The translations under genes and the position numbers were made by a program. Under the pieces are notes generated by a model, which searched no databases, was not told where the DNA came from, and saw nothing but the letters and a program-made list of their open reading frames with translations. A stretch of 59,196 nucleotides of DNA from Verrucomicrobiales bacterium (GTDB lineage Bacteria; Verrucomicrobiota; Verrucomicrobiia; Verrucomicrobiales; V1-33), in assembly GCA_044239025.1 (NCBI GenBank), contig JBIICE010000001.1, forward strand, positions 1-59,196, in the 5' to 3' direction. This document shows, piece by piece, positions 23,651-47,255 of the stretch (its first letter is position 1; each line of letters starts with the position of its first letter).

Positions 23651-25135
23651 ATGAGATTTCCGTGGTTTCTTGCGCTGCGGTACCTGAAGCCGAAGCGCAC
23701 TTTCATTTCCATCATCACCGTGATTTCGGTGGTGGGGGTCGCGCTTGGAGTGGCTGTGCTCCTCATCGTGATTGCCGTGATGAGCGGCTTCGAAAAGCGC
23801 ATCAAGGAGGAATGGCTGAAGGTCGAGCCGCCACTCATGCTCGAGGACACCACACGGCAGTTTTTCGCCGGCGCGGATGCTCCCGGCGATGACGGGGTCC
23901 CGGTCTGGCGGGAACTGCTCACGGGCGTCATGCAGCACCCCGGGGTGACCGGCGCTTCGCCCTACCTCAATGTGACCACGCTCATGCAGCTGGCCCCGGA
24001 GGGATCGCTCGACGCCGCCAGCATCGAAATCAAGCCAGACAGCGGCGAGGCCGCGCCGGTCGAATCTCCCGCTGCCACGGAAACGCCGGCCAGCGGCGGC
24101 GGACCCGACCCGAAACGCCCCGTGGCCAATGCCATGATCGTGGGCGTGGATCCCGACGACGCCGTGCAGATGGAACGGCTGCAGCGCCGCTTCTCGGAAA
24201 GCAATCCCGATGGCCATTTCGACATCACGGGCACCTCGCTCGTCCTCAGTATCGAACTGGTCGACCGGCTCCTCCGCGGCAGCGATGCCGGATTCACGGC
24301 CGGGGAAAGCCGCGTCAATGTCTTCGGCCCCAGCTACATCAACGAAGTCGTCAGCTACAGCGAGGAAAAACGGGCGGCCCAGGGCGACGCTCAGAGGGAA
24401 GCCGCCGTCGATCAGAAGGAACGCGAGTACCCTCTGCCGGCTGAGCTGACCGTCACGGGCATCTATTCCGACGCCAAGCAGGCCGGCCTCGGCTTCGTCT
24501 CGCTGAAGACCGCGCAGCGGCTGGCGGGATCGGGCACGGCCGTGGATGGTCTCATGGTGGACATTGCCGATCCATTCAAGGCAGGAGAAATGGCGCAGTC
24601 GCTCGAGCAATCCGGTCTCCTGCCGCCGGGCTGGCAGACGGTCACGTGGATGGAACGTCACCGCGAACTCTTCGATGCGGTCGCCAATGAACGGGGCATG
24701 ATGTACATCGTGCTGGGCTTCATTTCGGTGGTCGCCGCCTTCTGCATCATGAACACCATGATCACCATGGCGGTGCAGAAGCGCCGGGAAATCGGCATGA
24801 TGCGGGCCCTCGGGGCGCGGACTTCCCAGATTGTCGCGGTCTTCGTGGCCCAGGGCCTCGTGGTGGCCACGCTGGGGGTCGGGCTCGGTTACGCGCTCGG
24901 CATGGCGGTGCTCACCTGGCGCAATGAACTGCGGCGCTTCATCAACGATCACTTCGCATGGAAGATCTTTGATGAACGGATCTACGGGCTCCGGGAAATT
25001 CCGGCGGAACTGCGGCCCATCGATGTGATCATCATCTGCGGCATTGCCTTCATTCTCTGCACGCTGGCGGCGGTCCCGCCGGCTCTTGCCGTGGGCAGGA
25101 TGGCTCCGGCTCGGGCGCTGCGCAACGACCGCTGA
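23651..25135 (+). CDS. LolC/LolE-type (FtsX/MacB-like) ABC transporter permease with an enlarged periplasmic domain
   Basis: MRFPWFLALRYLKPKRTFISIITVISVVGVALGV N-terminus and an FtsX-type C-terminal 3-TM bundle (MRALGARTSQIVAVFVAQG...). No cognate ATPase gene lies next to it. The start is ATG 23651; the track ORF starts at 23570. Confidence 0.85.
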   Translation: MRFPWFLALRYLKPKRTFISIITVISVVGVALGVAVLLIVIAVMSGFEKRIKEEWLKVEPPLMLEDTTRQFFAGADAPGDDGVPVWRELLTGVMQHPGVTGASPYLNVTTLMQLAPEGSLDAASIEIKPDSGEAAPVESPAATETPASGGGPDPKRPVANAMIVGVDPDDAVQMERLQRRFSESNPDGHFDITGTSLVLSIELVDRLLRGSDAGFTAGESRVNVFGPSYINEVVSYSEEKRAAQGDAQREAAVDQKEREYPLPAELTVTGIYSDAKQAGLGFVSLKTAQRLAGSGTAVDGLMVDIADPFKAGEMAQSLEQSGLLPPGWQTVTWMERHRELFDAVANERGMMYIVLGFISVVAAFCIMNTMITMAVQKRREIGMMRALGARTSQIVAVFVAQGLVVATLGVGLGYALGMAVLTWRNELRRFINDHFAWKIFDERIYGLREIPAELRPIDVIIICGIAFILCTLAAVPPALAVGRMAPARALRNDR

Positions 25136-25145
25136 CCCCTGAGGA

Positions 25146-26552
25146 TTGCCTCTGCCGCGCATGAACACATCTCCCGGAGCCGTGGCGGAACGCAACATCC
25201 GGGCCTTCCTGTGGTTCCGCGTCCTCTTCAATTCCCGGTTCTATTATCCGGTCTACACAATCCTCTTTCTCGATTTCGGACTGAGCCTCGAGCAGTTCGC
25301 CATGCTCAATCTTGTCTGGGCGGCGAGCATTGTTGTTTTCGAAGTTCCCAGTGGAGCGCTGGCCGACCGCATGGGACGCCGCCGTCTCGTCATTTTCTCG
25401 GCGCTGCTCATGGTGGTGGAAATGCTGCTGCTCTGTCTCATGCCGGTCAATGGCGGGGCGCTCACGTTTTCGCTCTTTCTGGTCAACCGGGTGATCAGTG
25501 GCATGGCGGAAGCCTGCTGCAGCGGCGCGGATGAATCCCTCGTCTACGATTCGCTTCCGGAAAATGGCCGCCACGAGGCATGGACCCGCGTGCTGGCAAG
25601 GCTCATGCGCTGGCAGTCGCTCACGTTCATGCTGGTGGCGCTCACGGGGGCGGTGCTCTACGATCCGGCTCCGTCGCGCGGTGGCTGGGATCTGCGCCCG
25701 GATTGGCTCACGGGAATGTCCCGCGAGGCGCACATGCGGCTGCCGCTCTGGGCGAATTTTGCCATGGCGCTGGGCACGGTGGCGGTCAGTCTGCGGTTCG
25801 TGGACACGCATGCCGTCACGGCGGGCCGGCGGAAACTGGGCGAAGTGCTGGCGGGCAGCTTCCGGCAGATGGCTTCCGCGGCGGCTTTCATTCTGCGGTC
25901 GCCGGCTGCCCTCGTGCTCATCCTCACGGGCATGCTCTACGATGGCTTCATGCGGCTATTCTATACGGTGGGGAGCAATTATTACCGGCTCCTTGGCATC
26001 CCGGAGGCCTGCAATGGCATCATCCTTGCCGGTAGTTCAGTCATCGGGATCGGTACGGCCCTCGTTGTGGAGAAGCTCGCCGGAACTCTCCGGCCTTCCC
26101 AGAATCTCGGCATGGTGGCGGTCTTCATCCTGGCGGGACTGACGGGTCTCGCGCTCCAGATCACGGCGTGGCAGGGCTGGGCGGGGGTCCTCTTCGTGGT
26201 GCCTTTCTGGCTGGGCATGCGCTCGCTGCATTACTTCCTGAGTCAGTACCTGCACCGGGTCACGGGGTCGGCGCACCGCGCCACGGTCATCAGCTTCAAG
26301 GGGCTGGCCATGAATCTGGCCTACGGGGCCGCCATGTGGGGGTACGGCACGCAGACGGCATGGCTGCGCCATCAGCACGCCGGGGAACTCGCTCCGCTCG
26401 GCAAGGAGGCCACGGATGTCCGCCTGCTCTCCCTCGCCATGCCCGCATGGCCATGGCTCTTTGCGATCCTTGCCATCCTGCTCGTCCTCTGGATCCGGCT
26501 GCGCTGGGGAAGGGGACTCTCGGGGTTGCTCGCCGCCGCCTCGACGGACTGA
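25146..26552 (+). CDS. MFS transporter
   Basis: About 12 predicted TM helices and an MFS loop motif (GALADRMGRRRLVIF). The start could instead be the MNTSPG Met 15 nt downstream. Confidence 0.8.
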   Translation: MPLPRMNTSPGAVAERNIRAFLWFRVLFNSRFYYPVYTILFLDFGLSLEQFAMLNLVWAASIVVFEVPSGALADRMGRRRLVIFSALLMVVEMLLLCLMPVNGGALTFSLFLVNRVISGMAEACCSGADESLVYDSLPENGRHEAWTRVLARLMRWQSLTFMLVALTGAVLYDPAPSRGGWDLRPDWLTGMSREAHMRLPLWANFAMALGTVAVSLRFVDTHAVTAGRRKLGEVLAGSFRQMASAAAFILRSPAALVLILTGMLYDGFMRLFYTVGSNYYRLLGIPEACNGIILAGSSVIGIGTALVVEKLAGTLRPSQNLGMVAVFILAGLTGLALQITAWQGWAGVLFVVPFWLGMRSLHYFLSQYLHRVTGSAHRATVISFKGLAMNLAYGAAMWGYGTQTAWLRHQHAGELAPLGKEATDVRLLSLAMPAWPWLFAILAILLVLWIRLRWGRGLSGLLAAASTD

Positions 26553-26645
26553 GGCTCGGGGAAGGGCGGGAGGAAATCGGTGGACAGGGGCGTGGTCCCT
26601 TGGTAAGCGCCCCCTTTCATTCACTTCCTACCAACGACACCAGCC

Positions 26646-27914
26646 ATGGCCTATACCACGTGCACTGTTCCTTCCGGCGGCAAGATCTCCATCAGTGGAG
26701 GCAAACTCTCCGTTCCTGCGAATCCCATTGTGCCGTTCATCCGCGGCGATGGCACGGGCCCGGACATCTGGGCGTCGAGCGTGCGCGTTCTCGATGCGGC
26801 CGTCGCAAAGGCCTACCACGGGGAACGGAAAATCGCTTGGATGGAGGTCTTCGCAGGGGAAGAAAGCTTCAAGCGCTTCAATAACTGGCTGCCGGACGAT
26901 ACGGTGGAGGCCTTCCGCGAATTCCTCGTGGGCATCAAAGGCCCGCTCACCACGCCGGTCGGCGGTGGCATCCGCTCGCTCAATGTCGCCCTCCGCCAGT
27001 TGCTCGACCTCTACGTCTGCCTCCGCCCGGTGCAGTACTTCACGGGCGTTCCTTCCCCGGTGAAGCGTCCGGAAAAGGTGGACATGGTCATCTTCCGCGA
27101 GAATACCGAGGACATCTACGCGGGCATCGATTTCCAGGCGGGAGCCGAAGCCGCCACCAAAACACTCGAATTCCTCAAGGCTTCCTTTCCGAAGGAATTC
27201 TCCAAAATCCGCTTCGGCGCGGAATCACCGGACCTCGTCGGCATCGGCATCAAGCCGGTCTCGCAGCCAGGCACGGAACGGCTCATCCGCTCGGCCATCG
27301 AGTACGCCATCATCAATAACCGGAAATCGGTCACCCTCGTCCACAAGGGGAACATCATGAAGTTCACGGAAGGTGCCTTCCGCGACTGGGGCTACGAACT
27401 CGCCAAGAAGGAATTCGGAGCCGAGGAAATCGACGGCGGTCCATGGTGCCGCATCCCGGATGGCAAACCGGGAGCCGGCATCATCATCAAGGACGCCATC
27501 GCGGACATCACGCTACAGCAGGTGCTCACCCGCCCGACGGATTTCGACGTCATCGCCACCCTCAACCTCAATGGCGACTACCTGAGCGACGCCCTCGCGG
27601 CTCAGGTCGGCGGCATCGGCATCGCCCCGGGCGGTAATATCAATTACGTGTCGGGCCACGCCATCTTCGAAGCCACCCACGGCACGGCCCCGAAATACGC
27701 CGACAAGGATGTCGTCAACCCGGGTTCGGTGGTCCTCAGCGGCGAAATGATGCTCCGCTACATGGGCTGGACGGAAGCCGCCGACCTCATCCTCAAGGGC
27801 CTCAATGGAGCCATCGGCAGCCGCAAGGTCACCTATGACTTCGCCCGACTCATGGAGGGAGCCACGGAAATCAAGTGCTCGGCCTTCGGTCAGAACATCA
27901 TCGACCACATGTAA
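26646..27914 (+). CDS. icd: NADP-dependent isocitrate dehydrogenase
   Basis: 422 aa with [33 protein letters not shown] and [23 protein letters not shown]. Confidence 0.93.
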
Positions 27915-27925
27915 GGGCCTTTGCC

Positions 27926-28438
27926 ATGCAGCGCCGCGCTTTCTGCCGTCTGGCCACTCTCGCGGGTGCGGGAGCCACGGTTTCGTGTTCCTCCACCCCG
28001 GAGGTCCCCTCGGAGTCATGGCCGGGCACGGCCTTCGATTCGGTCCGGGCTTTCGTCTATGCCTGCGAAGCGGATAAGGATAAGACGTTTGTCCGACCCA
28101 ATGGCTCGCTCCATCCGGGCGTGCTCAATGGCAAGGGCGTGGCACTCAGCCGCACCCAGACCGACCGCCTCGTCGCGGCGGGCCGACGCTACGTGAAGCC
28201 GACGAGCCGTTCGGCCTGCTACGTCCCGCATCACGCCTTCGTGTTCTACTCTGCCGGCCGCCCGGTCGCCTGCATGGAAATCTGCTTCACTTGCCACCGC
28301 CACAATTCCTCGCCATCCGGCCTGCCGCAGGCCATGGATTACGACGCCATCTGGACGCTCCTGCACGAACTGGGCGTCTACGCGGACACCACCCCCGGTT
28401 GCTACCTGCGCCAGTGGAACCAGCGCCCCGCCCGCTGA
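27926..28438 (+). CDS. Hypothetical lipoprotein
   Basis: Signal plus lipobox (MQRRAFCRLATLAGAGATVSCSS). Cys/His-containing segments CYVPHHAF and CMEICFTCHRH. No family recognised. Confidence 0.55.
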   Translation: MQRRAFCRLATLAGAGATVSCSSTPEVPSESWPGTAFDSVRAFVYACEADKDKTFVRPNGSLHPGVLNGKGVALSRTQTDRLVAAGRRYVKPTSRSACYVPHHAFVFYSAGRPVACMEICFTCHRHNSSPSGLPQAMDYDAIWTLLHELGVYADTTPGCYLRQWNQRPAR

Positions 28439-28462
28439 AGCAAGGCGACTCCTCCCCCCACC

Positions 28463-29773
28463 ATGGATTACCAGCAGACCCTCGCGAAACCGGCCAGCCT
28501 CACGGGCACCAGCCTCCACACAGGAGCCAGTGTCACGCTCACCATGAAGCCGGCCCCGCCAGGGCACGGCATCAAATTCCGCCGCATCGACCTCGAGGAC
28601 CAGCCGTTCATCCCGGCCAGCGTCGACAAGGTCCAGATGGTGGAACGTGCCACCACCCTCGCGGAGGGCTCGGTCAAGGTCCACACGGTCGAACACGTCA
28701 TCTCGGCCCTCGCGGGCATGGGCGTCGATAACGCCCTCATCGAAATGGATGCCAACGAACCGCCCATCGGCGATGGCTCGGCGGCTCCCTACGTCGAATG
28801 CATCAAGGCCGCCGGTATCCAGAAGCAGGACCAACTCCGTTCGGTCTACGAGGTCCGCGAACCCATCCACGTGGAAACCGCAGGCGGTAGTCTCATCACC
28901 ATCGTCCCGGACCGCAAGTTCCGCATCTCCTGTACCCAGGTCGGCCCGGATGGTCGCTACACTCAATACTTCAGCACGGAAATCACCCCGGAAACCTACG
29001 AGAAGGAAATCGCCCCAGCCCGCACCTTCGTCTTCTACGAGGACGTCAAGGGCCTCCTCGAAAAGGGCCTCATCAAGGGCGGAAGCCTCGAAAACGCCGT
29101 CGTCATCCGCGACGACAGCGTCATGAGCAAGGAACCCCTCCGCTTCCGCGACGAATTCGTCCGACACAAGATCCTCGATATCGTCGGCGACCTCATGCTG
29201 TTCGGAAAACGCATCATGGGCCACGTCATCGCCGTCAAACCCGGCCACGGCCCGAACACGGAAATGGCCCGCCGACTCAAGGCGGAACACGCCCGCATGC
29301 TCAGCATGGTCCCCATGTCCGTCAGCATCCCCCACGGGGAAGCCGTCCTCGACATCAATGAGGTCATGCGCATCCTCCCGCACCGCTACCCTTTCCTCAT
29401 GGTCGACCGCATCGTCGGCTTCGAAGGCGATTCCAAATGCACGGGCGTCAAGGCGGTCACCATCAACGAACCCTTCTTCCAGGGGCACTTCCCTGGCCAC
29501 CCGGTCATGCCCGGTGTCCTCCAGGTCGAAGCCATGGCCCAGGTCGCCAGCATCCTCATGCTCCGTAAACCGGAAAATCAGGGGAAAATCGGCTACTTCA
29601 TGAGCGCCAATGAAGTCAAATTCCGCCGCCCCGTCGTCCCCGGCGACATGCTCTTCATCGAAGCCGAAATCCTCAAGGTGAAACGCAACATCGGCGTCGC
29701 CCGCGGCCGCTGCACCGTGAACGGCGAAACCACCAGCGAAGGCGAACTCATGTTCAGCCTCATCGGAAAGTAA
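28463..29773 (+). CDS. lpxC: Bifunctional UDP-3-O-acyl-GlcNAc deacetylase / 3-hydroxyacyl-ACP dehydratase (LpxC-FabZ fusion)
   Basis: The N-terminal half is LpxC-like (SLTGTSLHTGASVTLTMKPAP..., HTVEHVISALAGMGVDN). The C-terminal half is FabZ-like (LPHRYPFLMVDRI, FFQGHFPGHPVMPGVLQVEAMAQ). Confidence 0.92.
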   Translation: MDYQQTLAKPASLTGTSLHTGASVTLTMKPAPPGHGIKFRRIDLEDQPFIPASVDKVQMVERATTLAEGSVKVHTVEHVISALAGMGVDNALIEMDANEPPIGDGSAAPYVECIKAAGIQKQDQLRSVYEVREPIHVETAGGSLITIVPDRKFRISCTQVGPDGRYTQYFSTEITPETYEKEIAPARTFVFYEDVKGLLEKGLIKGGSLENAVVIRDDSVMSKEPLRFRDEFVRHKILDIVGDLMLFGKRIMGHVIAVKPGHGPNTEMARRLKAEHARMLSMVPMSVSIPHGEAVLDINEVMRILPHRYPFLMVDRIVGFEGDSKCTGVKAVTINEPFFQGHFPGHPVMPGVLQVEAMAQVASILMLRKPENQGKIGYFMSANEVKFRRPVVPGDMLFIEAEILKVKRNIGVARGRCTVNGETTSEGELMFSLIGK

Positions 29774-29852
29774 CACCACCACGTTCTTTTCCTTGCACTC
29801 CTCCGGTTCCAGGGTATCCCACCCCCGTCACCTCCACGGAAGACCAAATCAC

Positions 29853-29943
29853 GGACAGATGGCAGAGTGGTCGAATGCGCACGCTTGGAAAGCGTGTGTG
29901 CGCTAAAACCGCACCGAGGGTTCGAATCCCTCTCTGTCCGCCA
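29853..29943 (+). tRNA. tRNA-Ser (anticodon GGA), class II with long variable arm, CCA encoded
   Basis: Acceptor stem GGACAGA/TCTGTCC, anticodon stem-loop CACGC-TTGGAAA-GCGTG, T arm GAGGG-TTCGAATC-CCTC, discriminator G, then CCA. It is closely similar to the E. coli tRNA-Ser(GGA) as I remember it. Confidence 0.93.
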
Positions 29944-29995
29944 TTCCTCCCAGTTGCCCCGGACCCGGCACACGGGTGAATCCGCCGACGTGAAA

Positions 29996-30148
29996 GGGCC
30001 CGACTACCCGTCCGAAACCTTCCGTGTCCTCAAGGAAAAGGAAAACCGCCAGTACGGCGAGTACCGCACCCGCCGCCTCGTCCTCGAAGCCTGGGACCGG
30101 ATGGAGGGTGAGGGGGCTTTCGCTGCACTCGACCTGACCCTCTGTTGA
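29996..30148 (+). pseudogene. Orphan 3'-terminal stub of a larger gene (RM-type/defence-enzyme C-terminal tail)
   Basis: Reads GPDYPSETFRVLKEKENRQYGEYRTRRLVLEAWDRMEGEGAFAALDLTLC*. The GEYRT+RL+LEAWD ending is one I remember from the C-termini of large type IIG/methyltransferase-type enzymes. The upstream reading frame runs straight into the tRNA, so no functional N-terminus can exist. Confidence 0.5.
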
Positions 30149-30162
30149 GTATAAGATCCGCC

Positions 30163-31551
30163 ATGCTCACGTCACTCCGCATCCAAAACTTCAAAGCCTG
30201 GAAAGACACGGGGTCCGTACGTCTTGCGCCGCTTACGGTGATTTTCGGAGCGAACAGTGCGGGCAAAAGCAGCTTGGGGCACCTGATGCTGGCGCTCAAG
30301 CAGACAGCGCAGGCAACGGATCGCCGCCGTGCGCTTCATCTGGGGGATGAAAAATCACTGATTGACCTCGGCACCTTCGAGGACTGCCTCCACGGTCACC
30401 ATACGAAGAATCCGCTGGAATTTGAATTGAAGTGGCGACCACCCGGAGGGTTTCACACCAAGGACCCACTCTCCCGGACCACGTACCGGGGAGACACGCT
30501 CACCCTGCTTTCGAGTCTGGAGGCGGACAACACATCACAGCCCCAGGTTTCCCGCATACACTATGCCGTCACAGAGGACGAGGGATGCAGACTGGGAGTG
30601 GAATTTCACCGTTCTGCGAAGGGCGATTTCTCGCTGAAATCTGACCAGTACAAATTCGTCAAGACCCCGGGACGGCAATGGCCTCTGGACGCGCCGGAGA
30701 AATTCTACCGGATTTCCGACACCAGCCGTGCGAGGTTTCAGAATGCAGGATTTCTGGCGGACTTGGCGCTGGCCACCGAGGACCTGCTGAATCACTTCTA
30801 CTATCTTGGCCCGCTGCGTGACCATCCGCGCCGTACCTATCAGTGGTCCGGCGACACGCCGGAAGATGTTGGAGCGAAAGGAGAGTTGACCGTGCCCGCC
30901 ATCCTTGCCGCCGATGCTCAGAACCGAAAGCTCAATCGGGGGCCGAAGCAGAGGCTGCAAACCTTCCAAGCCTTCATCGCTGCCTGGCTCAAGGATCTCG
31001 GAGTGATTCACGATTTCACGGTGAAGCAGATCGCCAGCGGGAGGAAAGAATACGAGGTTCTGATCAAGTCCAGTTCCAGCGCACCGGAAGTGAAGATCAC
31101 GGACGTGGGCTTCGGGGTTTCCCAGGTCCTGCCGGCCCTCGTGCTGCCGTTCTACTGCCCGGCGAATTCGATTGTCTGGATGGAGCAGCCGGAGATCCAT
31201 CTCCACCCACAGGTTCAGGCGGAACTGGCGGACGTATTCATCTGTGCTGTCAAGGCACGGGAGAACAATCATGAACGCAATGTTCAGCTCATCGTCGAAA
31301 GTCATTCCGAGCATTTCCTGAATCGCCTGCAACGCCGCCTTGCCGAAGGGGTCCTGACCCCCGATGACGTGGCGGTTTATTTCTGCAGAAAAAACACAAG
31401 GGGCGGCACTGATTTGGAACCGCTGAGGGTCAATGTGTTTGGTGATATTGAAAACTGGCCGGAGAATTTCTTTGGCGATGAAATGGCGGATCTGACCGCC
31501 CGCACTGTCGCTGCGGCGAAAAAGCGCAGGGACCAGATCCGGAAATCATGA
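30163..31551 (+). CDS. ABC/AAA_21-type (SMC-like) ATPase with a DUF3696-like C-terminus
   Basis: MLTSLRIQNFKAWKD..., Walker A FGANSAGKSS, Walker B/D-loop VWMEQPEIHLHPQ, H-loop IVESHSEHF, and tail FGDIENWPENFFGDE. The ATG is at 30163; the track uses an upstream TTG at 30145. Its stop overlaps the next start (ATGA at 31548-31551). Confidence 0.85.
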   Translation: MLTSLRIQNFKAWKDTGSVRLAPLTVIFGANSAGKSSLGHLMLALKQTAQATDRRRALHLGDEKSLIDLGTFEDCLHGHHTKNPLEFELKWRPPGGFHTKDPLSRTTYRGDTLTLLSSLEADNTSQPQVSRIHYAVTEDEGCRLGVEFHRSAKGDFSLKSDQYKFVKTPGRQWPLDAPEKFYRISDTSRARFQNAGFLADLALATEDLLNHFYYLGPLRDHPRRTYQWSGDTPEDVGAKGELTVPAILAADAQNRKLNRGPKQRLQTFQAFIAAWLKDLGVIHDFTVKQIASGRKEYEVLIKSSSSAPEVKITDVGFGVSQVLPALVLPFYCPANSIVWMEQPEIHLHPQVQAELADVFICAVKARENNHERNVQLIVESHSEHFLNRLQRRLAEGVLTPDDVAVYFCRKNTRGGTDLEPLRVNVFGDIENWPENFFGDEMADLTARTVAAAKKRRDQIRKS

Positions 31552-32054
31552 CTGCCATCATTGATACCAATGTGGTCCTCGTGGCCAATGGGCAGCATCC
31601 GGACGTCTCTCCTGAATGCATGGCTGCGTGCGCACGGCGGCTTGAGGCCATCATGAAGACTGGGAGAATCGCCGTCGATGACGGGTATGAAGTCCTCAGG
31701 GAATATCAGCATAAGACACAACCAAAGGCGGGCAACAGGCCCGGCGACGCCTTTGTGAAGTGGGCTCTCCGGAACCATGCCACGGCTGCGAAATGTGATC
31801 GGGTACCGATCACGGAACATGCCGACCGCGGATATGAGGAGTTCCCTGAGGACGCTCGTTTGGCGGATTTTGACGCCCCGGACCGCAAGTTTGTCGCTGT
31901 TGCTGCCGCCCATGCGGATCGTCCGCCGATTCTGCAGGCCGCCGACTCCAAATGGCTCGACTGGCAGGACGCTTTGAAGGAACACGGAATCACGGTCGAG
32001 TTGCTCTGCCCTCAGGACATCCGGCGTTTTCATGCGAATAAGTTCGGCCCATGA
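31548..32054 (+). CDS. PIN-domain-like nuclease
   Basis: 168 aa with a PIN-type acidic pattern: AIIDTNVVLVANG, an E in the RRLEAIMKTG/YEVLREY region, DRKFVAVAAAHADRPPILQAADSKW. ATGA overlaps join it to both neighbours. Confidence 0.7.
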   Translation: MTAIIDTNVVLVANGQHPDVSPECMAACARRLEAIMKTGRIAVDDGYEVLREYQHKTQPKAGNRPGDAFVKWALRNHATAAKCDRVPITEHADRGYEEFPEDARLADFDAPDRKFVAVAAAHADRPPILQAADSKWLDWQDALKEHGITVELLCPQDIRRFHANKFGP

Positions 32055-32761
32055 GCAGCTTCTTCCGCTTCCCGCATACTCCGCACCTTGAATGGCTCGG
32101 GGAGGGCTCGCCGCGCGACGACAAGGTGCTGTCGCCAGCTGAAGCAAAGGACTTGCTCGCCGGCGAGGTGGTGGTCGAGGAGAAGCTCGATGGTGCCAAT
32201 GTGGGATTTTCCATCGGATCCGATGGTGGTGTCCGTGTGCAGAACCGGGGCCAGTATCTGGAGGAGCCGTTCCATGGGCAGTTCTCGCGTCTGACTCCTT
32301 GGCTGGCGCAGCATCGGGAGACGCTTGAGGCCTTGTTGACGCTTGGGCTCATTCTGTTTGGCGAGTGGTGCGCCGCAAAGCACTCAGTGGCTTACCGGAG
32401 TCTGCCTGACTGGTTTCTGGGGTTCGATGTTTATGATCGGGCGGAGGGAAGGTTCTGGAGCACCCGGCGCCGCAATGATCTTCTGGGGTCGCTGGGATTC
32501 GCAGCGGTGCCTTGCCGATTCCGTGGCCATGCCGACTTGCCTCTGCTGACCGAATTGCTGCGCACAGAGGCAAGCCAATATGATTCCGGCCCGATGGAGG
32601 GTGTAGTCATCCGAAGCGAGGATTCCAGTTGGCTTCTCAGGCGGGCCAAGCTGGTCCGAGCGGATTTCACACAGTCAATCGCCGAACACTGGTCGCGACG
32701 AAGTATCGAGTGGAATCGGGTATCGCCCGAAATCAACGCACCCCTTCTTCATGAAAACTGA
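32051..32761 (+). CDS. ATP-dependent RNA ligase family protein (Rnl2/DRB0094-type nucleotidyltransferase)
   Basis: Motif I EEKLDGANVG (KxDG lysine), ILFGEW (motif III/IIIa), FLGFDVY (motif IV), EGVVIRS...RRAKLVR (motif V). N-terminal FPHTPHL. Confidence 0.78.
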   Translation: MSSFFRFPHTPHLEWLGEGSPRDDKVLSPAEAKDLLAGEVVVEEKLDGANVGFSIGSDGGVRVQNRGQYLEEPFHGQFSRLTPWLAQHRETLEALLTLGLILFGEWCAAKHSVAYRSLPDWFLGFDVYDRAEGRFWSTRRRNDLLGSLGFAAVPCRFRGHADLPLLTELLRTEASQYDSGPMEGVVIRSEDSSWLLRRAKLVRADFTQSIAEHWSRRSIEWNRVSPEINAPLLHEN

Positions 32762-33149
32762 TAGGGATGCAGGGCATTCCTTCATCATCCGCGAGGACAG
32801 CCAGAAGGCAGCCTGGCATCACGGTTTCCGCCGGGAACTGGGCGAGTCGGATGGTTGGGCGGCGTTCGAGTCCACGACGGCGCAGGGAACAATCTGGCTC
32901 GCAGCGGATGCTCCCCATGGGCCTTGGTATCTGGCCATCGATCATCGCGGGGCACATGATTGCTTCCCATTCCGCGTTGGTCGTGACGAGACCCAGCTGT
33001 GCAACTGTATCGACTGTTCTCTTGTTGAGCCCACGTGTTCCCAGTTCCAGCTTCGGTTGCTCCAAATCGAGGCGGGACCTGTCTGCGTGGCGGATGAGGC
33101 CAGATTGTCTGAACTCTGGGAAAAGGCCGGACTTCGCCACGCTGAATAA
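32751..33149 (+). CDS. Hypothetical protein, possible fourth gene of the islet operon
   Basis: A 132-aa ORF whose ATG overlaps the ligase stop by 11 nt. Its codon third-position bias resembles the three upstream genes. It contains a Cys cluster (LCNCIDCSLVEPTC). No family recognised. An antisense ORF (32733-33140) is an alternative that I consider less likely. Confidence 0.45.
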   Translation: MKTDRDAGHSFIIREDSQKAAWHHGFRRELGESDGWAAFESTTAQGTIWLAADAPHGPWYLAIDHRGAHDCFPFRVGRDETQLCNCIDCSLVEPTCSQFQLRLLQIEAGPVCVADEARLSELWEKAGLRHAE

Positions 33150-33172
33150 ATGCCTCGTGAATCGAGAATTTT

Positions 33173-33274
33173 ATGGAAATCCAACCTGACAAGCAGAACA
33201 TCGACCGCCTGTTTTCCACCACGGTCTACTACATCGACTTCTACCAACGCGACTACCCCCGTGTGTCAGGATAG
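33173..33274 (+). pseudogene. 5' stub of a DUF262 (GmrSD/ParB-nuclease-like) gene, truncated by IS insertion
   Basis: MEIQPDKQNIDRLFSTTVYYIDFYQRDY matches the remembered DUF262 N-terminal signature (..YYIDFYQR.YKW). It then reads PRVSG* as it enters the IS inverted repeat at 33264. Confidence 0.6.
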
Positions 33275-33627
33275 TTGTCCATGCTGCGCAGTTGTGATTC
33301 CAAATCGGGTGTGCTGCTGCTGCGGCTGACCAGACCCAATCCCATGAACCCCATTCCACCTGAACGCCGGGAGGCCATTCTTGGCCGCCTCAGCTGGCCG
33401 GCACGTGAACCTGTCGCCCGGGTTGCTGCCCAGGAGGGCATTAGTTCCGCAACCCTCTACCTGTGGCGCAGGAAGGCCCTTCGGTCCGGGGCTCTGCTGC
33501 CGGACCATGACGAGGCTCCCGAGGGCTGGTCCGCGGTGTGATCCGCTACTCTCAATCCAGTCTCTCCGCGCACCGTCGAATCAATCGCCAAACGCGCCGC
33601 ATGATCCATTGGGGAACTACCCTGACA
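33264..33627 (+). mobile_element. Internally deleted IS3-family-like element (about 364 bp) with terminal inverted repeats
   Basis: Left end gTGTCAGGATAGTTGTCC (33263-33280) versus the reverse complement of the right end GGGGAACTACCCTGACAg (33611-33628). 14 of 18 positions match, with TG...CA termini. The interior holds only a truncated HTH transposase OrfA. Confidence 0.65.
33344..33541 (+). pseudogene. Truncated IS3-type transposase OrfA (HTH_Tnp_1-like)
   Basis: MNPIPPERREAILGRLSWPAREPVARVAAQEGISSATLYLWRRKALRSGALLPDHDEAPEGWSAV*. The HTH and the ISxxTLYxWRRK motif are present. The rest of OrfA and all of OrfB are missing. Confidence 0.65.
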
Positions 33628-33685
33628 GCTATCGATAGAACGACTGGACGAGGGTTTGCCGGTGGGCGGGGTTGGGAGGCGGGGG

Positions 33686-35680
33686 TCAGGGGAGTTTTGA
33701 TGTGAAGGAGTGGCCACCGGCGGTGACGGAGAGGGTGCCGGATTTCCAGCCGAGTTGGACGGGGGACTGAGGGCCGCCCCAGAGGTCGCGGTGCTGGTTC
33801 CATGCGTGTTCCTTGCCATCGCGGAGGATGGCGGGAAGGGCGTCGGGATTTGGGGTGATAGCGACCGAGGTTCCCGAGTTGGCGTGGAAGACGAAGGTAT
33901 GATTGGCCGTTTTTTCGAGTCGCGAACGGGAAGTGCAGGCGCGGCGGAACGCGTCGAACGAGCCATGGGTTTCCGGTTCACCGATTTCCATGGCGAGGGC
34001 GCAGGGGGAGTTGCCTTCGGCCGGGAAGGTCCACACCTGAGCGTCCGGGAAGCGGGGAGTTTCGCCTTCTTTCCGGGGGCCGCAGGCCTTTGCGGTCAGT
34101 TCCGGGTTCAGGCTGCCGGTGCCGACGTGGAAGCGGTGCAGAGCGATCCATGTTTTTTCGAACTCGAGGAAAGAGATGTTATCCGAGTGCGAGAGCGAGA
34201 CTGCTTTGGGCAGGAAGAAATGGAATTCGGGCGGCTTGGCGGTGCTGGTCCAGACGAGGGCAGGGCCATGCTGGGCGAGGTGGTCATGGCCACTGGAGGC
34301 GGTGGCATGGCTATGATTCCATGAGCGGCCCGTGAAGCAGATGAGGGTATCCGCTCCGTGGCTCTGGTTTTCCGCAAGGATCCGGAAGCCATTGAGGTTC
34401 ATGCCTGGGGCATCGGCGTGACCGCGTGGCAGCGAGCCCATTTGGCTGTGATGACCGATCCAGGTGGTTTCGTGGTAGGCGGGATTCTGCTCGCCGCCGG
34501 GTTGCTGCCAGCCCGTGTAGGACGGTTTTGCCGCGAAGATTTCCGCGGGGCGGGGAAACTGCCGTCGGGCCACGGCGACGACCGCAGCCGGCGGGCGGTA
34601 GGCGCTGGCCATGACGTGCACGAAATCGCGGTATGGTTCGCGCGCTGGTTCCGAGAGTTCCCCGAAGTAGTGCCAGAATTCTCCGGCGGCACCGGCATGC
34701 GGTCCGATGTTCCCATAATCGCGGAGGCCCGGGCCGGCCCACGAGCCACGGAAGTACTTGAGGGCCGCGGCGGTGCAGATGTGATCGAGCATGGCCTTGG
34801 CGAGCGCGCGGACATTCCGTTCCCTTGCGAAATCGTAGAGCGGCAGCCATGCCGTGAGCGCGTGATTCAGGTAGTTGGGGCTATCCCATTCCGGCATGCC
34901 CGTCAGGTAGAGAGCCTCCGCGTAGGCGCGGATGCGCTGCAGGGAAGCGGCGGCGGTCTCCTTGTTTCCGGTTTCCATGGCCATGAGATAAATGGCCTGT
35001 TCGCGCATGGCGCGGAGGTTGTCCGTTCCGCGGATATCGACCCATGAATTGTGGTACTCCGGCGTCCATCCTTCGCCGCCCATGCCCTTGGCCTTGCGGT
35101 CCTCCGGCCGGATCCAGAAGGGATTCGCCCGGCCGAGGGGATCGGACGACGTCCATGCCGCCGCGGAATCCTTCATTTTCTGGCGATAGGCCGGGTCGAG
35201 AAGTGCGCCGAACTGGAAGTACTTGCGCGTCTGCGACCGGATGGTGAACGACGGGAACCAGTCGACCCCCATGGTCAGCTGGCGGCTCCACTGGGCGTCG
35301 TCGTCAGCCTGCAGAAAGGCGAGTGCCTCCTTCGTCTGTCCCTTGAGCAGGCCGATGAAGGCATTGGGGTAGCTGGACTTCTCGTTTTCGAAGAAAGTGC
35401 CACCGTAACGGCCAGGAGCGATCTGCGAAGCGCGGAGGCTTGCATTGGTTCGCTCCACGAATTCCGCTTCCCATGCCTCTGGCCATGCATTCCGGAGGTC
35501 GGCTGGGATTTCGGGATGACGGAAGACCACATGGCCGCGGGCATCGGTTTCGAACGGGGGAATGGCAGAGCAGAGCCTGGGAAAGAAGACCGCGAGGCCG
35601 AGCAGAAGTGCGATCCAGGGACGCAAGGGGTGCATGGGATGCGGGGAAGTCAGGGAAGTCAGGGAAGTCAGGGAAGTCAT
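33686..35680 (-). CDS. Secreted hypothetical protein (large alpha-rich, PVC-type)
   Basis: A 664-aa ORF with the signal peptide MHPLRPWIALLLGLAVFFPRLCSA. The start is either ATG 35680 (ATGA overlap with the upstream stop, adding MTSLTSLTSLTSPHP) or ATG 35635. No family recognised with confidence. Confidence 0.75.
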   Translation of the reverse strand: MTSLTSLTSLTSPHPMHPLRPWIALLLGLAVFFPRLCSAIPPFETDARGHVVFRHPEIPADLRNAWPEAWEAEFVERTNASLRASQIAPGRYGGTFFENEKSSYPNAFIGLLKGQTKEALAFLQADDDAQWSRQLTMGVDWFPSFTIRSQTRKYFQFGALLDPAYRQKMKDSAAAWTSSDPLGRANPFWIRPEDRKAKGMGGEGWTPEYHNSWVDIRGTDNLRAMREQAIYLMAMETGNKETAAASLQRIRAYAEALYLTGMPEWDSPNYLNHALTAWLPLYDFARERNVRALAKAMLDHICTAAALKYFRGSWAGPGLRDYGNIGPHAGAAGEFWHYFGELSEPAREPYRDFVHVMASAYRPPAAVVAVARRQFPRPAEIFAAKPSYTGWQQPGGEQNPAYHETTWIGHHSQMGSLPRGHADAPGMNLNGFRILAENQSHGADTLICFTGRSWNHSHATASSGHDHLAQHGPALVWTSTAKPPEFHFFLPKAVSLSHSDNISFLEFEKTWIALHRFHVGTGSLNPELTAKACGPRKEGETPRFPDAQVWTFPAEGNSPCALAMEIGEPETHGSFDAFRRACTSRSRLEKTANHTFVFHANSGTSVAITPNPDALPAILRDGKEHAWNQHRDLWGGPQSPVQLGWKSGTLSVTAGGHSFTSKLP
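35644..35679. repeat. 9-bp tandem repeat GGGAAGTCA, 4 perfect copies
   Basis: The four copies are at 35644-35652, 35653-35661, 35662-35670 and 35671-35679. On the minus strand they encode (TSL)x3-TS if the upstream start is used. Confidence 0.95.
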
Positions 35681-37977
35681 CGGGTTCCGGGAGTCAGGTC
35701 GATCTGGTGGGGATTGGATTCCCTGTTTCCGGCGGCGTCGGTGGCCTCGGCCGTGAGCGCAGCATAGGCGGTTAGGGAGAGTTCCCAGTCAGCGACGCCG
35801 TGCTGTTGGCTGGTGATGGTGGCGGGGGTTCCATTGACCGAGATGGAAGCGATGGATTCATTGTCGTGCGAGACACCGCGGACGGTGAGTTTTCCTTCGC
35901 TGCGGTGGATCTCGGTGATCATGGTGGCGGGCGGGAGGTCGTCTGCCGGGCTGAGCAATTCCGGGAATTCGTAGTTCAGGGTGCGCGACGCGACGACGTC
36001 CGGGCCAGTGAAACCATCCATGGGAGCGTAGCCGCGTTTGGCGAGCTGATCCGGAAAGTGACGGCTGACCACTTCGATGGTTTGGCCGCCCGTGGCCTTG
36101 CCGGGATGGAAGATGTAGACGACCGGGTGATCGCGGGTTTCGCTGCGGGGGCCGCCGCCGAGGTCGACGATCTGCGATTCCGATCGGCAGTTTTCGATGA
36201 CGAGGCCGCGGAAATGGCCCGTGACGGTTTCCGGGGCCGTGCAGGCCAGCTGGATGAGGGGGTCGCGTCCCGTGCGGCAATTGCGCAGCGTGACATCATC
36301 CATGGTGAAGTTCCCGTACTGGATGCTTTCATCGTCGTGGCCGCGGTTGATGGGTTCGCTTTCGACCGTGTCGAGGGTGATGTGGCGGTAGACGTGCGCG
36401 TCGTAATCCGGGTGGTAGATGCCGTAGACCGCGCGCTGCACGTGGAGTCCGTCGCAGAGGAAGAAGCGGAGATTCGGACGGAGCGAGTAATGGGTTTCCC
36501 ATGCGCGCAGCTGACGGACGATGAAGGGATGGTGGTGGTCTCCGCTGGTGTGGCGACCCTCGTCGTCGCCCAGATTGAAGCTGTAGAGGCCTTCGGTGTG
36601 CGATTCATTGGCCTCGAAGCGCAGGAAGGGAAGGCGGCGCACGTCCGTGTCCTGCAGCATTCCGTCCGGCTGCGGCAGCGACAGGACCGGGCTGAAGCCA
36701 CTCGACTGGCGGACCTCGAAACGGAAGCCATAGCGGTCATTTTCGCAGGCGACATTCCGGGTGAAGGCATTGCGGCCATTGGCCCACCAGAAGCCCGCTC
36801 CGTCATTGGGATCGAAGGGGAGGGCCTGCTTCGGGAGGCGCGGGGCTGCGGTCGCCTGGACAGCGAGATTGCGGTCGAGGAGATTCCATTGTTCCGTGGC
36901 GTCCTCGAGGAAGAAGCCATGGCCTTTGGACTGATAACCGACGCAGTCGCGCACGAGAAGGTGGTCCGTGCCGTGGATCGTGATCCAGCGGTTATGGCTA
37001 TCCCAGATGCTGGCTCCGGTGACGCCGCTGCCGCGCATGGTGCTTCCGGCGAGGTGGAAATGGATCGCGTATTTGCCGAGAACACCCTTTTTTCCGAGGT
37101 GACGGAATTCGGCGTAGCTGATGCCACCGGCGGAATCGCGGTGGTACATGGTGTGGCCACGGATGCCATCGGGATCCGCGCTTTCGATGACGACATTGCG
37201 GCTGAGCAGGGCGGCCTCGCACTGACGGAAGGATTCGCCGAGGTGGTGATTTTCGAGGGGCCGGTCGAGTGTCAGGCGCTGCCCCTCGATGGCGGAAATG
37301 AGACGGCGTTCCGTGGCTCCGCCGGCTGCGGTTGCCTGCGCCTTCGTAAATTCCGGTTCGAGCGACCCAGTCACGATGATTTGCTGTCCGGGCCGCCAGC
37401 CGGTGGGTTCCGTTTCGAGCAGAATCTCCGTGGAACCTGGTTTGGCCGTGGCTGCCAGCTTGAGCCATGTGCGCGGCGTGGGACTGCCATGGACATCCCA
37501 GCGGCCGCCGCAGGCGACGATCGCGGGCAGGGTTTCGGGATTCATGCCCGGGAAATGGCGGAGGCGGATCCGCGCGGTGATTCCCGATGGGATGGGGCGA
37601 TCGCGCGATCCGATTTCGAGGGTCGGCAGCGTTTCGTCCCCGGCGGCATCCGGGGCCTCATCATGGCAATCGAAGCCATCTTCCGAGCATTGTTCGCCCG
37701 GGGAAATGCGGATGAGTCCAGCGGTCATCAGCGTGCTGCGGTCGCGTGCGAACGTGAGCGAGCCCGCCACGTGAACGACCCGGTAGGCGTCGGTGGAATC
37801 CATGTCGTAGACCACCGCATGCCCCTTGCGGATCTGGACCGACTGACCGTCGCGGGGAGGATTTCCATTCCATGTGGCTGGGTCCGACCATGGGCCGCTG
37901 CGGGCTGAGGCGGTGTCGAAGGCGACTGGATCGGCGTGGACGATCGAGGCTACCGCGAAAAAAAGCAGGGCGCGCAT
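35677..37977 (-). CDS. G8 domain / right-handed beta-helix secreted protein
   Basis: Signal MRALLFFAVASIVHA, then a G8-like start (SGPWSDPATWNGNPPRDGQSVQIRKGHAVVYD). The body is parallel beta-helix style. The start is set at ATG 37977; the track ORF starts at 38019. Confidence 0.8.
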   Translation of the reverse strand: MRALLFFAVASIVHADPVAFDTASARSGPWSDPATWNGNPPRDGQSVQIRKGHAVVYDMDSTDAYRVVHVAGSLTFARDRSTLMTAGLIRISPGEQCSEDGFDCHDEAPDAAGDETLPTLEIGSRDRPIPSGITARIRLRHFPGMNPETLPAIVACGGRWDVHGSPTPRTWLKLAATAKPGSTEILLETEPTGWRPGQQIIVTGSLEPEFTKAQATAAGGATERRLISAIEGQRLTLDRPLENHHLGESFRQCEAALLSRNVVIESADPDGIRGHTMYHRDSAGGISYAEFRHLGKKGVLGKYAIHFHLAGSTMRGSGVTGASIWDSHNRWITIHGTDHLLVRDCVGYQSKGHGFFLEDATEQWNLLDRNLAVQATAAPRLPKQALPFDPNDGAGFWWANGRNAFTRNVACENDRYGFRFEVRQSSGFSPVLSLPQPDGMLQDTDVRRLPFLRFEANESHTEGLYSFNLGDDEGRHTSGDHHHPFIVRQLRAWETHYSLRPNLRFFLCDGLHVQRAVYGIYHPDYDAHVYRHITLDTVESEPINRGHDDESIQYGNFTMDDVTLRNCRTGRDPLIQLACTAPETVTGHFRGLVIENCRSESQIVDLGGGPRSETRDHPVVYIFHPGKATGGQTIEVVSRHFPDQLAKRGYAPMDGFTGPDVVASRTLNYEFPELLSPADDLPPATMITEIHRSEGKLTVRGVSHDNESIASISVNGTPATITSQQHGVADWELSLTAYAALTAEATDAAGNRESNPHQIDLTPGTR

Positions 37978-38058
37978 GATGACCGGAAGATCCGGCAGAG
38001 CATGCGCGCCCGGCAACACCGCAGGTGCGTGGACCTTGCGGCGTACGGTGGTGACAGC

Positions 38059-38913
38059 TTACTTCGCCGCCGCGGTGGCGGGGGCGTAGCCCGGCACGGG
38101 ATTGCCGGCTTCATCCAGTTTGCCGCAGGCCCACAGCAGGCCGCGGGTGACGAGATCGAGGTAGCGGTCGTCGCCCACGGTTTCGTTATTGTGACCGAGG
38201 CTCGTGCTGAAGATGCGCGTCTTCTTTTCGCCGTATTCGTGCGACCAGACGACCACGGTTTCCTGATTGTCCTGCTTCCCTTTGGCGAGCGTGGCCGCCG
38301 TTGGATACACCTGGATGTTGTTGTAGAGTTCCTCCTTGATGGTCGTCCAGTTGGCGAGGCCCTTGGTGACGGGATGCTTGTCGTCCGTGTAGGTCACATC
38401 GATCGGCTTCTGGGGACCGTGGCCGGTGCTCTGGAGACCGAGCATGTCGAACCACATGGCGTCCGTCGACCCCGGGGTGACCGGTTTGGCGATTTGTCCG
38501 ACGCGGTAGCAATGCATGGCGCAGTGCAGATTGACGGCGGGGACACCATTCTTGTGAGCGTCGAGGATATTCTGGACGTAGGCGGTGTCCTTGATGTCCG
38601 CCGAGCATTCGTCATGGATGACGACGTCGTAGTTCTTCGCCCAGTCCTTGCCTTCGTAGCAGGGGAACGTGGCCTTGGTGCTGGAGTCAGGGGAAAAGCA
38701 CACCGTGACCTCGATGTTGCCCCGGCTTTCAATGCCCGCCTTGAGGAGATCCTTCTGCGTCTTGTAGTCGTGGCAGCAGCCTCCGATCACGAGAAGTGCC
38801 TTGAGCGGCCTGGGGGCGGATTTGGTTTCGGCGACCGAGGGCATGCTCAGGAAGGCAGCGCATCCGAGAGCGAGCGAAGCGGCGGCGAAGGGGAGGAGAT
38901 GACGTTTTTTCAT
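38059..38913 (-). CDS. ThuA domain-containing protein, secreted
   Basis: Signal peptide, then KALLVIGGCCHDYKTQKD...VIHDECSADI...VNLHCAMHCY...WSHEYGKKTRIFSTSLGH. This is typical of ThuA-like class I glutamine amidotransferase folds. Confidence 0.82.
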   Translation of the reverse strand: MKKRHLLPFAAASLALGCAAFLSMPSVAETKSAPRPLKALLVIGGCCHDYKTQKDLLKAGIESRGNIEVTVCFSPDSSTKATFPCYEGKDWAKNYDVVIHDECSADIKDTAYVQNILDAHKNGVPAVNLHCAMHCYRVGQIAKPVTPGSTDAMWFDMLGLQSTGHGPQKPIDVTYTDDKHPVTKGLANWTTIKEELYNNIQVYPTAATLAKGKQDNQETVVVWSHEYGEKKTRIFSTSLGHNNETVGDDRYLDLVTRGLLWACGKLDEAGNPVPGYAPATAAAK

Positions 38914-38946
38914 GGAGATTCGGGGTGTGAGGACGGAGAGGTAGGC

Positions 38947-40416
<1,470 letters not shown>

Positions 40417-40542
40417 GGGTATTAAGGGGCTGCGGTGGAGTTGGATGGAGCGGATGGGAATCCGGAGGAAACGGTGGGGAGACTATCCGTGGATTGCGGT
40501 CAGCGGAAACTACGGAAACGCGTGGCGGATGGGGCGGATGGG

Positions 40543-41853: not shown

Positions 41854-41911
41854 GGGATGACTCTGAGGGGTCCGGAGCGGTGGGGAAGATCCGTCTTTGC
41901 GGGGACGTGCT

Positions 41912-44047: not shown

Positions 44048-44057
44048 GCCGTCGGGT

Positions 44058-47228: not shown

Positions 47229-47255
47229 CCAAGGGATTTCCGGAAAACCGGAAGA

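Follow-up and report, generated by a model that had tools for sequence, protein, structure and literature searches.

The DNA examined here is a stretch of 59,196 nucleotides (nt), referred to throughout as the window, from the genome of a Verrucomicrobiales bacterium (G000, assembled in 375 contigs). Its subject is a small islet of genes directly behind a tRNA-Ser(GGA) gene, which occupies 29853–29943 of the plus strand and is the sole tRNA called by ARAGORN in the window. From the tRNA onward, the islet (29944–33627) carries the 3′ stub of a DNA methyltransferase gene, a cassette of three intact genes encoding an ATPase, a PIN-like nuclease and an RNA ligase, a further open reading frame (orf4), the 5′ stub of a DUF262 gene, and a miniature insertion sequence (IS). 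A preliminary description of the window had listed these elements in the same order, and all of them lie where it had put them or a few bases away. The consecutive open reading frames (ORFs) between 30163 and 33149 are co-directional and overlap by 4, 4 and 11 nt. Proteins were compared with the Pfam, NCBIfam and PADLOC libraries, and genomes in sets of 14 for the genus (13 congeners), 38 for the family and 401 for the phylum. The nearest genome compared is G003; other G and L numbers denote relatives and loci. Related ATPase loci came from a one-genome-per-species scan that returned at least 569, and the statistics below refer to the best 80, spanning more than 15 phyla.

The element next to the tRNA is the end of a large gene. 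The preliminary description had placed a 3′ gene stub at 29996–30148; the stub is real, and its homology begins earlier, no more than 22 nt past the tRNA, and runs from 29966 to 30145. The stub (29966–30148, plus strand) has no start codon and consists of the last ~48–60 codons and the stop codon of a large N6-adenine DNA methyltransferase gene of the Eco57I/MmeI/DrmMI type. By tblastn, it matched 54 plasmid records, all at the extreme C-terminus of a methyltransferase. The best match (69% over 48 residues, E 9e-20; 73% over 44 residues by tblastn) is the tail of a 1291-residue methylase from a Nostoc plasmid, whose gene is flanked by helicase genes and whose product is recognized by PADLOC as DrmMI/type IIG and by Pfam as Eco57I/MmeI_Mtase. 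An alternative assignment, to the tail of a PglX methylase of the bacteriophage exclusion (BREX) system, was rejected, as the stub shows no similarity to the PglXI that precedes the cassette in G038 and G389.

The same tail is found in front of the ATPase in related loci. Among the closest relatives, L096, L099 and L110 have an upstream methylase that ends between −6 and +17 nt from the ATPase start and whose tail is 67–71% identical to the stub. The stub also has tblastn matches of 59–62% just upstream of the ATPase in L103 and L125, giving a range of 59–73% for its homology to methylase tails or ATPase-upstream sequence across these five loci. Since the closest relatives carry a methylase with a stub-like tail right before the ATPase, the stub is therefore likely the original upstream neighbour of the cassette. 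The islet is thus predicted to be a fragment of one methyltransferase-led defence locus and not random debris. The truncated genes earlier called defence-gene debris do exist, but the methyltransferase stub is colinear with the loci of relatives and not an unrelated remnant.

The first gene of the cassette (30163–31551, plus strand) encodes an ABC ATPase with a DUF3696 tail. It matches the PADLOC model PDLC04148, named HEC-03B, at 2.1e-135, with residues 1–455 aligned on profile positions 1–452 of 458. It also matches the Menshen NsnB hidden Markov model at 7e-62 and the Pfam families AAA_15, AAA_21 and DUF3696, the last at the C-terminal helix. All 118 columns invariant across eight homologues are present, by construction, including the P-loop G29-x4-GKS.

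The second gene (31548–32054, plus strand) encodes the PIN-like nuclease, which matches PDLC04147, named HEC-03A, at 3.2e-25, with residues 1–157 on profile positions 1–154 of 159. The protein has no Pfam match. Residues D6, D44, D109, D112 and D133 are invariant among 63 homologues, and E52 is kept in at least 90% of them. The AlphaFold2 model has a predicted local distance difference test score (pLDDT) of 96, and its best fold matches in the PDB are the PIN proteins PAE0151, SMG6, VapC21 and HARP, all weak (E 0.035–0.3, template-modelling (TM) score 0.33–0.47).

The third gene (32051–32761, plus strand) encodes a minimal ATP-dependent RNA ligase of 236 residues, which is the adenylyltransferase domain only and matches Pfam RNA_ligase (PF09414) at 1e-36. 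Invariant in 46 homologues are K45-x-D47-G48 (motif I), F103-G-E-W (motif III), E183-G (motif IV) and K200 (motif V). The AlphaFold2 model (pLDDT 89) has REL1, Rnl3, NgrRnl and T4 Rnl2 as its top Foldseek matches, with E 2e-7 to 1e-6, probability 1.0 and TM score ~0.6. A sequence search of the PDB gave no useful match for either the PIN protein or the ligase. The presence of motifs I, III, IV and V together with the Rnl-type fold of the model identifies the predicted protein as an ATP-dependent RNA ligase of the Rnl family.

Start and stop codons overlap by 4 nt at both the ATPase/PIN and the PIN/ligase junctions. The cassette, an HEC-03 pair plus an RNA ligase, is predicted to be translationally coupled and intact; full-length profile matches and the retention of all catalytic motifs bear out the earlier view of an intact ATPase-PIN-ligase operon. 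Of the 80 best loci, 77 have a PIN gene behind the ATPase. The ligase gene follows the PIN gene in 52 of them, spread over more than 15 phyla, and is absent despite room for it in 22. Its presence is clade-structured, one clade of 16 rows being devoid of it. A literature search found no description of an ATPase-PIN-Rnl triad.

Orf4 (32751–33149, plus strand) is an open frame of 132 codons. Its residues 6–68 (32766–32972) are homologous to small hypothetical proteins, of which five were found among 5.8 billion, with 62–71% identity over 44–48% of the query. The remainder of orf4 gave no match in any frame by alignment and tblastn, and the conserved C-terminal half of the family is not encoded downstream. 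Orf4 is most likely a 5′ gene fragment whose frame stays open into unrelated DNA. Its candidacy as a fourth component of the cassette was dismissed: none of the 87 other cassette loci that were examined contains it, nor does any other part of G000, and only its first half has homologues. The four overlapping co-directional genes reported earlier at 30163–33149 are thus present as ORFs, but the fourth is only a fragment and the conserved genes are three. One member of the orf4 family lies on a 19-kb metagenome contig between GmrSD and DUF2971, in that order, within an island headed by a 1320-residue methylase of the Eco57I type. Members of the family have ~127 residues and no Pfam match, and on that contig (L176, the 19-kb JGI contig holding P0006) the gene overlaps the GmrSD stop codon; the members could be small partners of GmrSD. 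The L176 island also contains DuOB, two DUF488 genes, a KAP NTPase and an HNH protein.

The DUF262 (GmrSD/ParB-like) gene is reduced to its 5′ end at 33173–33274 of the plus strand. Translation gives 28 native codons, to 33255, followed by five junction codons and a stop within the end of the IS. By tblastn, the 28 residues are 64% identical to residues 1–28 of a DUF262 protein of 613 residues (E 2e-5), and PADLOC gives weak matches (E 1e-3) to the N-terminus of a model of ~600 residues. The stub described at this position is therefore confirmed by its match to the N-terminus of the 613-residue protein. The homology stops at 33255, precisely where the repeated element starts.

The repeated element (33256–33627, no strand assigned) is a miniature, non-autonomous IS derivative. 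As described before, it includes a 364-bp IS remnant at 33264–33627, which ends in terminal inverted repeats, TGTCAGGATAGTTGTCC and TGTCAGGGTAGTTCCCC, matching at 14 of 17 positions, and belongs to a multi-copy, clade-restricted family. The interior retains a 65-codon helix-turn-helix fragment resembling the OrfA of IS3/IS66, with weak IS66/IS3 OrfA matches; its HTH_Tnp_1 match (1.2e-4, 22.7 bits) lies under the 24.1-bit cut-off. The copies have a common left end, CCCCCTGTGTCAGGATAGTTGTCC, and variable lengths, and separate right-end copies also occur. G000 has 7–9 partial copies, G003 has 17 and G005 has 3, with marginal ones in G004, and among the 14 genus genomes the family is confined to these four. 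A search of G000 and the genus met no full-length parent IS among the assembled contigs, and those of G000 contain no full transposase of the family. No target-site duplication is seen at the element, whose flanks are ...CCCCCGTG and CTATCGAT..., and its lack is consistent with an adjacent deletion. The element resembles a miniature inverted-repeat transposable element (MITE) in having inverted repeats and many copies, with neither a transposase nor a target-site duplication.

The islet also differs in composition from its surroundings. The GC content of 29944–33263 is 58.5%, against 64.0% for the genome and 63.5% for the contig. This is the minimum of the contig and the 1.5th percentile of 6,419 genome-wide windows of 3.3 kb (z = −2.67). 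At third codon positions, the GC content (GC3) of the four islet ORFs is, in order, 0.68, 0.65, 0.67 and 0.63, that of the two upstream flanking genes 0.83 and 0.81, and that of the two downstream genes 0.76 and 0.77. The dip, found in both GC and GC3, is real and gene-level, yet moderate. The preliminary description had counted GC on single lines of sequence; its values of 0.55, 0.55 and 0.70 are exact, but the contrast they suggest overstates that of 58.5% to 64.0% over 3.3 kb.

The boundary of the islet at the tRNA is sharp. The tRNA-Ser(GGA) is native, being 100% identical in G003 and G012 and having orthologues in 12 of the 13 congeners, and the preceding LpxC-FabZ is 99% identical in amino acid sequence between G000 and G003. 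The alignment with G003 (88.7% nt identity) extends over 5.9 kb from window position 24002 to 29944 and stops at the end of the tRNA. Beyond 29944, G003 carries unrelated DNA, namely 562 nt of a dispersed ~350-nt repeat family, after which the contig ends. The cassette was not found in G003. Synteny returns only at 35683, where G003:C9:46428–60650 corresponds to window 35683–49900 with 85% nt identity over 14 kb. Position 35683 belongs to the stop codon of a gene for a 780-residue G8/CEMIP-beta-helix protein and coincides with a tandem repeat of four 9-bp units, GGGAAGTCA, at 35644–35682 (no strand assigned), which is the right edge of the segment. The segment specific to G000 relative to G003 is therefore 29944–35682, 5.7 kb in all, including a gene for a 664-residue protein beyond the IS. 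The tRNA-Ser(GGA)/lpxC-fabZ locus is thus variable among related genomes.

The DNA behind the same tRNA varies in other congeners as well. In G004 the tRNA is followed by a 407-residue ORF with the serine-recombinase 'Recombinase' domain and by 6 kb of unique low-GC DNA. The G004 flank (L092, G004:C35, 3535–9538) also holds a protein of 1292 residues without a Pfam match. In G010 (L094, G010:C5, 6000–12173) an IS4/IS5-type transposase and low-GC3 genes follow, including one with a weak DAC-like match, and in G001 and G012 the tRNA is followed by 3 kb without a counterpart in G000.

The distribution and phylogeny of the cassette are those of foreign DNA. Of the 38 family genomes, only G000 and G004 have a strong match to the HEC-03 ATPase; across the 401 phylum genomes the number is 10. 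The G004 cassette shares 72, 67 and 60% amino acid identity with that of the window over the three proteins; it lies at an unrelated site beside a reverse transcriptase-trypsin gene and has neither the stub nor orf4. In a FastTree phylogeny of 88 ATPases, G000 and G004 are sisters (support 98) inside a clade of 39 rows (support 100) that includes 29 Pseudomonadota, and six other Verrucomicrobiota ATPases fall in a distant clade. The GC content of the cassette is below that of its surroundings in the seven related loci examined. Elsewhere in the phylum, the cassette stands between PglXI and BrxHI-PglZ in G038 (BREX), directly after PglXI in G389, and after HsdM-HsdS in G411. The phylogeny and composition of the cassette in the window are foreign, and it is one more independent, foreign occurrence of the triad of HEC-03 pair plus ligase. 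The G004 neighbour is a 776-residue fusion of an RVT_1 reverse transcriptase (RT/DRT-like by PADLOC) and a trypsin-like protease, encoded on the minus strand of L068 (G004:C7, 9621–11951) and convergent to the cassette. In G389 (L085, G389:C25, 10440–13313), the BREX-embedded cassette is followed by a Schlafen/AlbA_2 protein and an HEC-01-type ATPase (3e-199), an instance of stacked embedded defence candidates.

We interpret 29944–33627 as part of a defence locus that was acquired horizontally and has since been partly dismantled, at a recombination-prone spot 3′ of the native tRNA-Ser(GGA), with a probability of roughly 0.78. The islet had been regarded as an eroded defence islet at a tRNA, and the three truncated genes, the IS without a transposase, the deviant composition and the sporadic distribution agree with this. 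Its erosion suggests that it is old. What the data show is the layout of the islet, its homologies, composition and variability and the foreign phylogeny of the cassette; the course of events given next is inferred, as are the way in which the DNA first entered, by an integrase or by other means, and all of the biochemistry. The source locus would have consisted of a large N6 methyltransferase gene, of type IIG or like that of the DISARM system (defence island system associated with restriction-modification), then the embedded ATPase-PIN-ligase cassette and, further on, more defence genes, one of them small and of the orf4 family and another resembling DUF262/GmrSD. A deletion on the left would have removed everything between the tRNA and the last ~50–60 codons of the methyltransferase gene. 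On the right side, an IS may have inserted into codon 29 of the DUF262 gene, the rest of that gene would have been lost, and the IS itself would have shrunk to the 364-bp miniature.

On this interpretation the islet is an ordinary small decayed defence patch at a tRNA hotspot. It offers a worked example of the decay of a defence locus, in which an embedded cassette outlives its restriction-type host system and the origin is betrayed only by the last ~50–60 methyltransferase codons. There is little support for a further idea, that the methyltransferase tail could be a recombination handle for swapping embedded cassettes between methylase-led loci. The conservation of the tail was not found to exceed that of the ATPase (66–73% versus 63–69% amino acid identity).

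Several observations weigh against the proposed origin of the islet at the tRNA from a methylase-led locus. Neither an integrase, nor an attachment (att) repeat, nor a target-site duplication was found. The search for integrase or recombinase domains covered the ORFs of 29944–33627 with Pfam, NCBIfam and PADLOC and the gene for the 664-residue protein with NCBIfam only, and detected none. A repeat of the tRNA 3′ end was sought by repeat search and blastn-short; the longest exact match was 9 nt and the best alignment 17/25, compared with up to 18/25 in shuffled sequences, and none was seen by the same search at the tRNA in five congeners. Both results agree with the preliminary description, which had noted the lack of an integrase and of a clean att repeat. 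The upstream neighbour of the tRNA also varies across the genus: the adjacency to lpxC-fabZ occurs in G000 and G003 only, the other congeners having no tRNA after lpxC-fabZ and other genes upstream of their tRNA-Ser(GGA). G000 and G003 also differ by a rearrangement of the right flank, and the G003 contig ends 562 nt past the tRNA, inside the dispersed repeat. With both flanks variable, the site could be a synteny breakpoint of a general kind instead of a tRNA-targeted attachment site. As for the methylase-led source, methylases are only 3–4 of the 73 upstream neighbours among the 80 best loci, so that embedding behind a methylase characterizes the closest relatives but not the family at large, and it was rejected as a general rule. 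The weak fold similarity of the PIN protein to solved structures is a further point of caution.

These observations lead to the most serious alternative, that the islet was never an integrase-borne tRNA island and was brought in or reshuffled by recombination, either IS-mediated or illegitimate, at a site where synteny generally breaks, its adjacency to the tRNA being incidental. The missing integrase and att repeat fit this explanation, as do the rearrangement of both flanks of the tRNA within the genus, the multi-copy IS family at the edge of the islet, and the right G000/G003 breakpoint (35683), which lies at a tandem repeat near rearranged contigs. The DNA abutting the gene for the 780-residue protein in G003 is found in G000 on contigs C256 and C268, which are joined there to C47, and the two genomes are therefore rearranged here. 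Among the 80 best cassette loci, moreover, only five have any tRNA within 6 kb. Against an incidental adjacency, G003 diverges precisely from the final base of the tRNA onward, and the 3′ flank of the same tRNA bears a recombinase fragment in G004 and, in G010, other accessory DNA of low GC content, a pattern typical of tRNA-targeted elements. We regard incidental adjacency as a real possibility, with a chance short of even. The ends of C256, C268 and C47 overlap by exactly 127 nt, the k-mer of the assembly, and may reflect either a rearrangement or a branch in the assembly graph.

A second alternative is that the segment is ancestral to the lineage of G000 and G003 and was deleted or replaced in G003, so that the difference is a loss there and not a gain in G000. 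The dispersed repeat and the contig break right after the tRNA in G003 could be read in this way, the congener G004 has the sister cassette, and the heavy erosion of the islet implies long residence. However, the G004 copy is at an unrelated locus, 11 of the 13 congeners have no strong match to the ATPase, and the composition is still clearly deviant. A loss in G003 is thus rather unlikely. With gain and loss alike, the segment is an accessory, foreign-derived islet.

The cassette itself might also be dead cargo, having lost its promoter together with the methyltransferase gene or being inactive despite its intact frames. The gap between the stub's stop codon and the ATPase start is just 15 nt, a scan for the sigma-70 consensus, which is uncalibrated for this phylum, found no promoter-like site upstream on the plus strand, and the surroundings of the cassette are all degraded. 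On the other hand, three long frames remain intact with every invariant catalytic residue while their neighbours decayed, and the interval from the tRNA to the ATPase has no terminator-like site, so that transcription from the tRNA promoter may read through. We consider a dead cassette improbable.

An assembly or binning artefact, with the contig chimeric at the repeated IS or at the tRNA, is suggested by the fragmented assembly with its 127-nt overlapping contig ends and by the repeat family at 33256–33627, but is very improbable, because the other copies of the repeat share no more than 96% identity over no more than 166 nt, so that the element is spanned by unique k-mers, the two flanks are of one lineage, each with 85–89% nt identity to G003, and the stub starts 22 nt past the tRNA with no repeat at the junction.

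The islet shares several features with tRNA-linked genomic islands. It begins at the 3′ end of a tRNA and is absent from the nearest relative, its composition is deviant, its distribution sporadic and its cargo defensive, and the same tRNA has mobile-element genes after it in congeners. In contrast to such islands, it has neither an integrase nor a duplicated tRNA end and is only 3.7 kb long, being a remnant and not a functional island.

The cargo belongs to a known group of embedded candidates. HEC-03 is Hma-embedded candidate 03 (Payne, Hughes, Fineran and Jackson 2024, bioRxiv 10.1101/2024.01.29.577857), represented in PADLOC-DB v2 by PDLC04147 and PDLC04148. The pair was shown to protect E. 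coli from phages, both genes being needed and their expression being toxic, and it was published as a two-gene system without mention of an RNA ligase (bioRxiv 10.1101/2024.01.29.577857). The genes in the window resemble it in that an ABC ATPase is followed by an adjacent, co-directional, VapC-like PIN gene, both matching the models from end to end, and in that the pair occurs within methylase-based defence loci, as the published examples do. They differ in that the window, like the 52 of the 80 best loci mentioned above, adds the translationally coupled ligase of 236 residues, and in that the host locus here is a 3′ stub. The HEC-03 profile match and the adjacent PIN protein with its acidic residues indicate membership in this group, phage protection being known only from the E. 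coli representative.

Cassettes embedded in Hma, BREX, DISARM and type I restriction-modification loci have been recognized through 'guilt by embedding' (bioRxiv 10.1101/2024.01.29.577857). Relatives of the present cassette conform to this, following Eco57I/DrmMI-type methylases in L096, L099, L105 and L110. The window differs in that the embedding system is gone except for the ~50–60 codons, leaving the cassette alone.

The Menshen system (NsnABC) was also considered. Its NsnB shares the architecture of an ABC ATPase with a DUF3696 tail, and a DUF262 fragment lies near the cassette in the window. In models of Menshen, the DUF3696 tail binds the PIN-like domain of the partner (PMC12065111). 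The PIN-like domain of Menshen, however, has no catalytic residues and forms part of a fusion with a separate nuclease, whereas the PIN protein of the window is free-standing and has kept its acidic residues. DUF262 in the window is a downstream stub of 28 codons. It was rejected as an NsnA-like component, since DUF262 adjoins none of the 87 other cassettes. The set that defines Menshen, an NsnA with ParB-DUF262 and ParBDB together with the ATPase, and an inactive PIN fused to an effector nuclease, is not what is found in the window.

The combination of nuclease and ligase suggests how the cassette might act. Metal-dependent cleavage by PIN nucleases produces 5′-phosphate and 3′-OH ends. The ATPase would sense infection and control the PIN ribonuclease via its DUF3696 tail; the PIN protein would cut RNA, leaving 5′-phosphate and 3′-OH ends; and the ligase, requiring exactly such ends, would reseal the RNA or limit self-damage. 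We tentatively propose that the cargo may be a self-repairing, RNA-targeting immunity in which the ATPase frees the PIN nuclease and the ligase reseals its products, so that growth arrest would be reversible and not suicidal. The triad poses the question of whether an RNase system of the abortive-infection type can carry its own repair enzyme.

Two precedents pair RNA cleavage with ligation. PrrC and RloC are anticodon nucleases regulated by ABC ATPases, and their damage is repaired by T4 Pnk and Rnl1, with RNA ligation serving as the antidote. The window resembles this case in that RNA cleavage would be the defence and RNA ligation the antidote. There, however, a phage-encoded ligase counters the host, whereas in the window both nuclease and ligase are host-encoded, and an end-healing kinase or phosphatase is lacking, which would fit the 5′-phosphate and 3′-OH ends expected of a PIN nuclease. 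The second precedent is the conflict operons with genes for PIN_3, an ATP-grasp ligase, an ATPase and an HNH protein (Burroughs and Aravind 2016), for which, as summarized in PMC5499597, the ligase is proposed on comparative-genomic grounds to neutralise the damage caused by the nuclease. The operons as outlined there share with the window the logic of combining a toxic nuclease and an ATPase with an RNA ligase. Compared with that outline (PMC5499597), the ligase of the window is of the covalent nucleotidyltransferase (Rnl) type, its PIN protein is of another family, and an HNH protein is lacking.

The gene for the 664-residue protein lies on the minus strand at 33686–35680, within the G000-specific segment. 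High-GC core-type genes had been thought to resume at 33686; the composition from there on is native, but there is no synteny at this point with the closest genome. The product is predicted to be secreted and gave no match in a scan with NCBIfam only; the gene has a GC3 of 0.76. The G003 homologue is only 77% identical in amino acid sequence, compared with 92–99% for genuine G000/G003 orthologues here, and lies on another contig beside the dispersed repeat family. The gene is patchy in the genus, occurring in seven of the 13 genomes, and these traits mark it as an accessory gene, native in composition, that either relocates or evolves fast. The GGGAAGTCA tandem repeat is perfect and lies at the overlapping stop and start codons of the genes for the 780- and 664-residue proteins, where it may mark a recombination scar. 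The dispersed ~350-nt repeat family is common in both G000 and G003 and is tandem in places, with a period of 347–352 nt; copies lie in G000 at C117:2083–2899 and C253:10985–11541 and on C352, C260, C245, C93, C5 and C267, and in G003 at C14:1–562 and C37:6026–6305.

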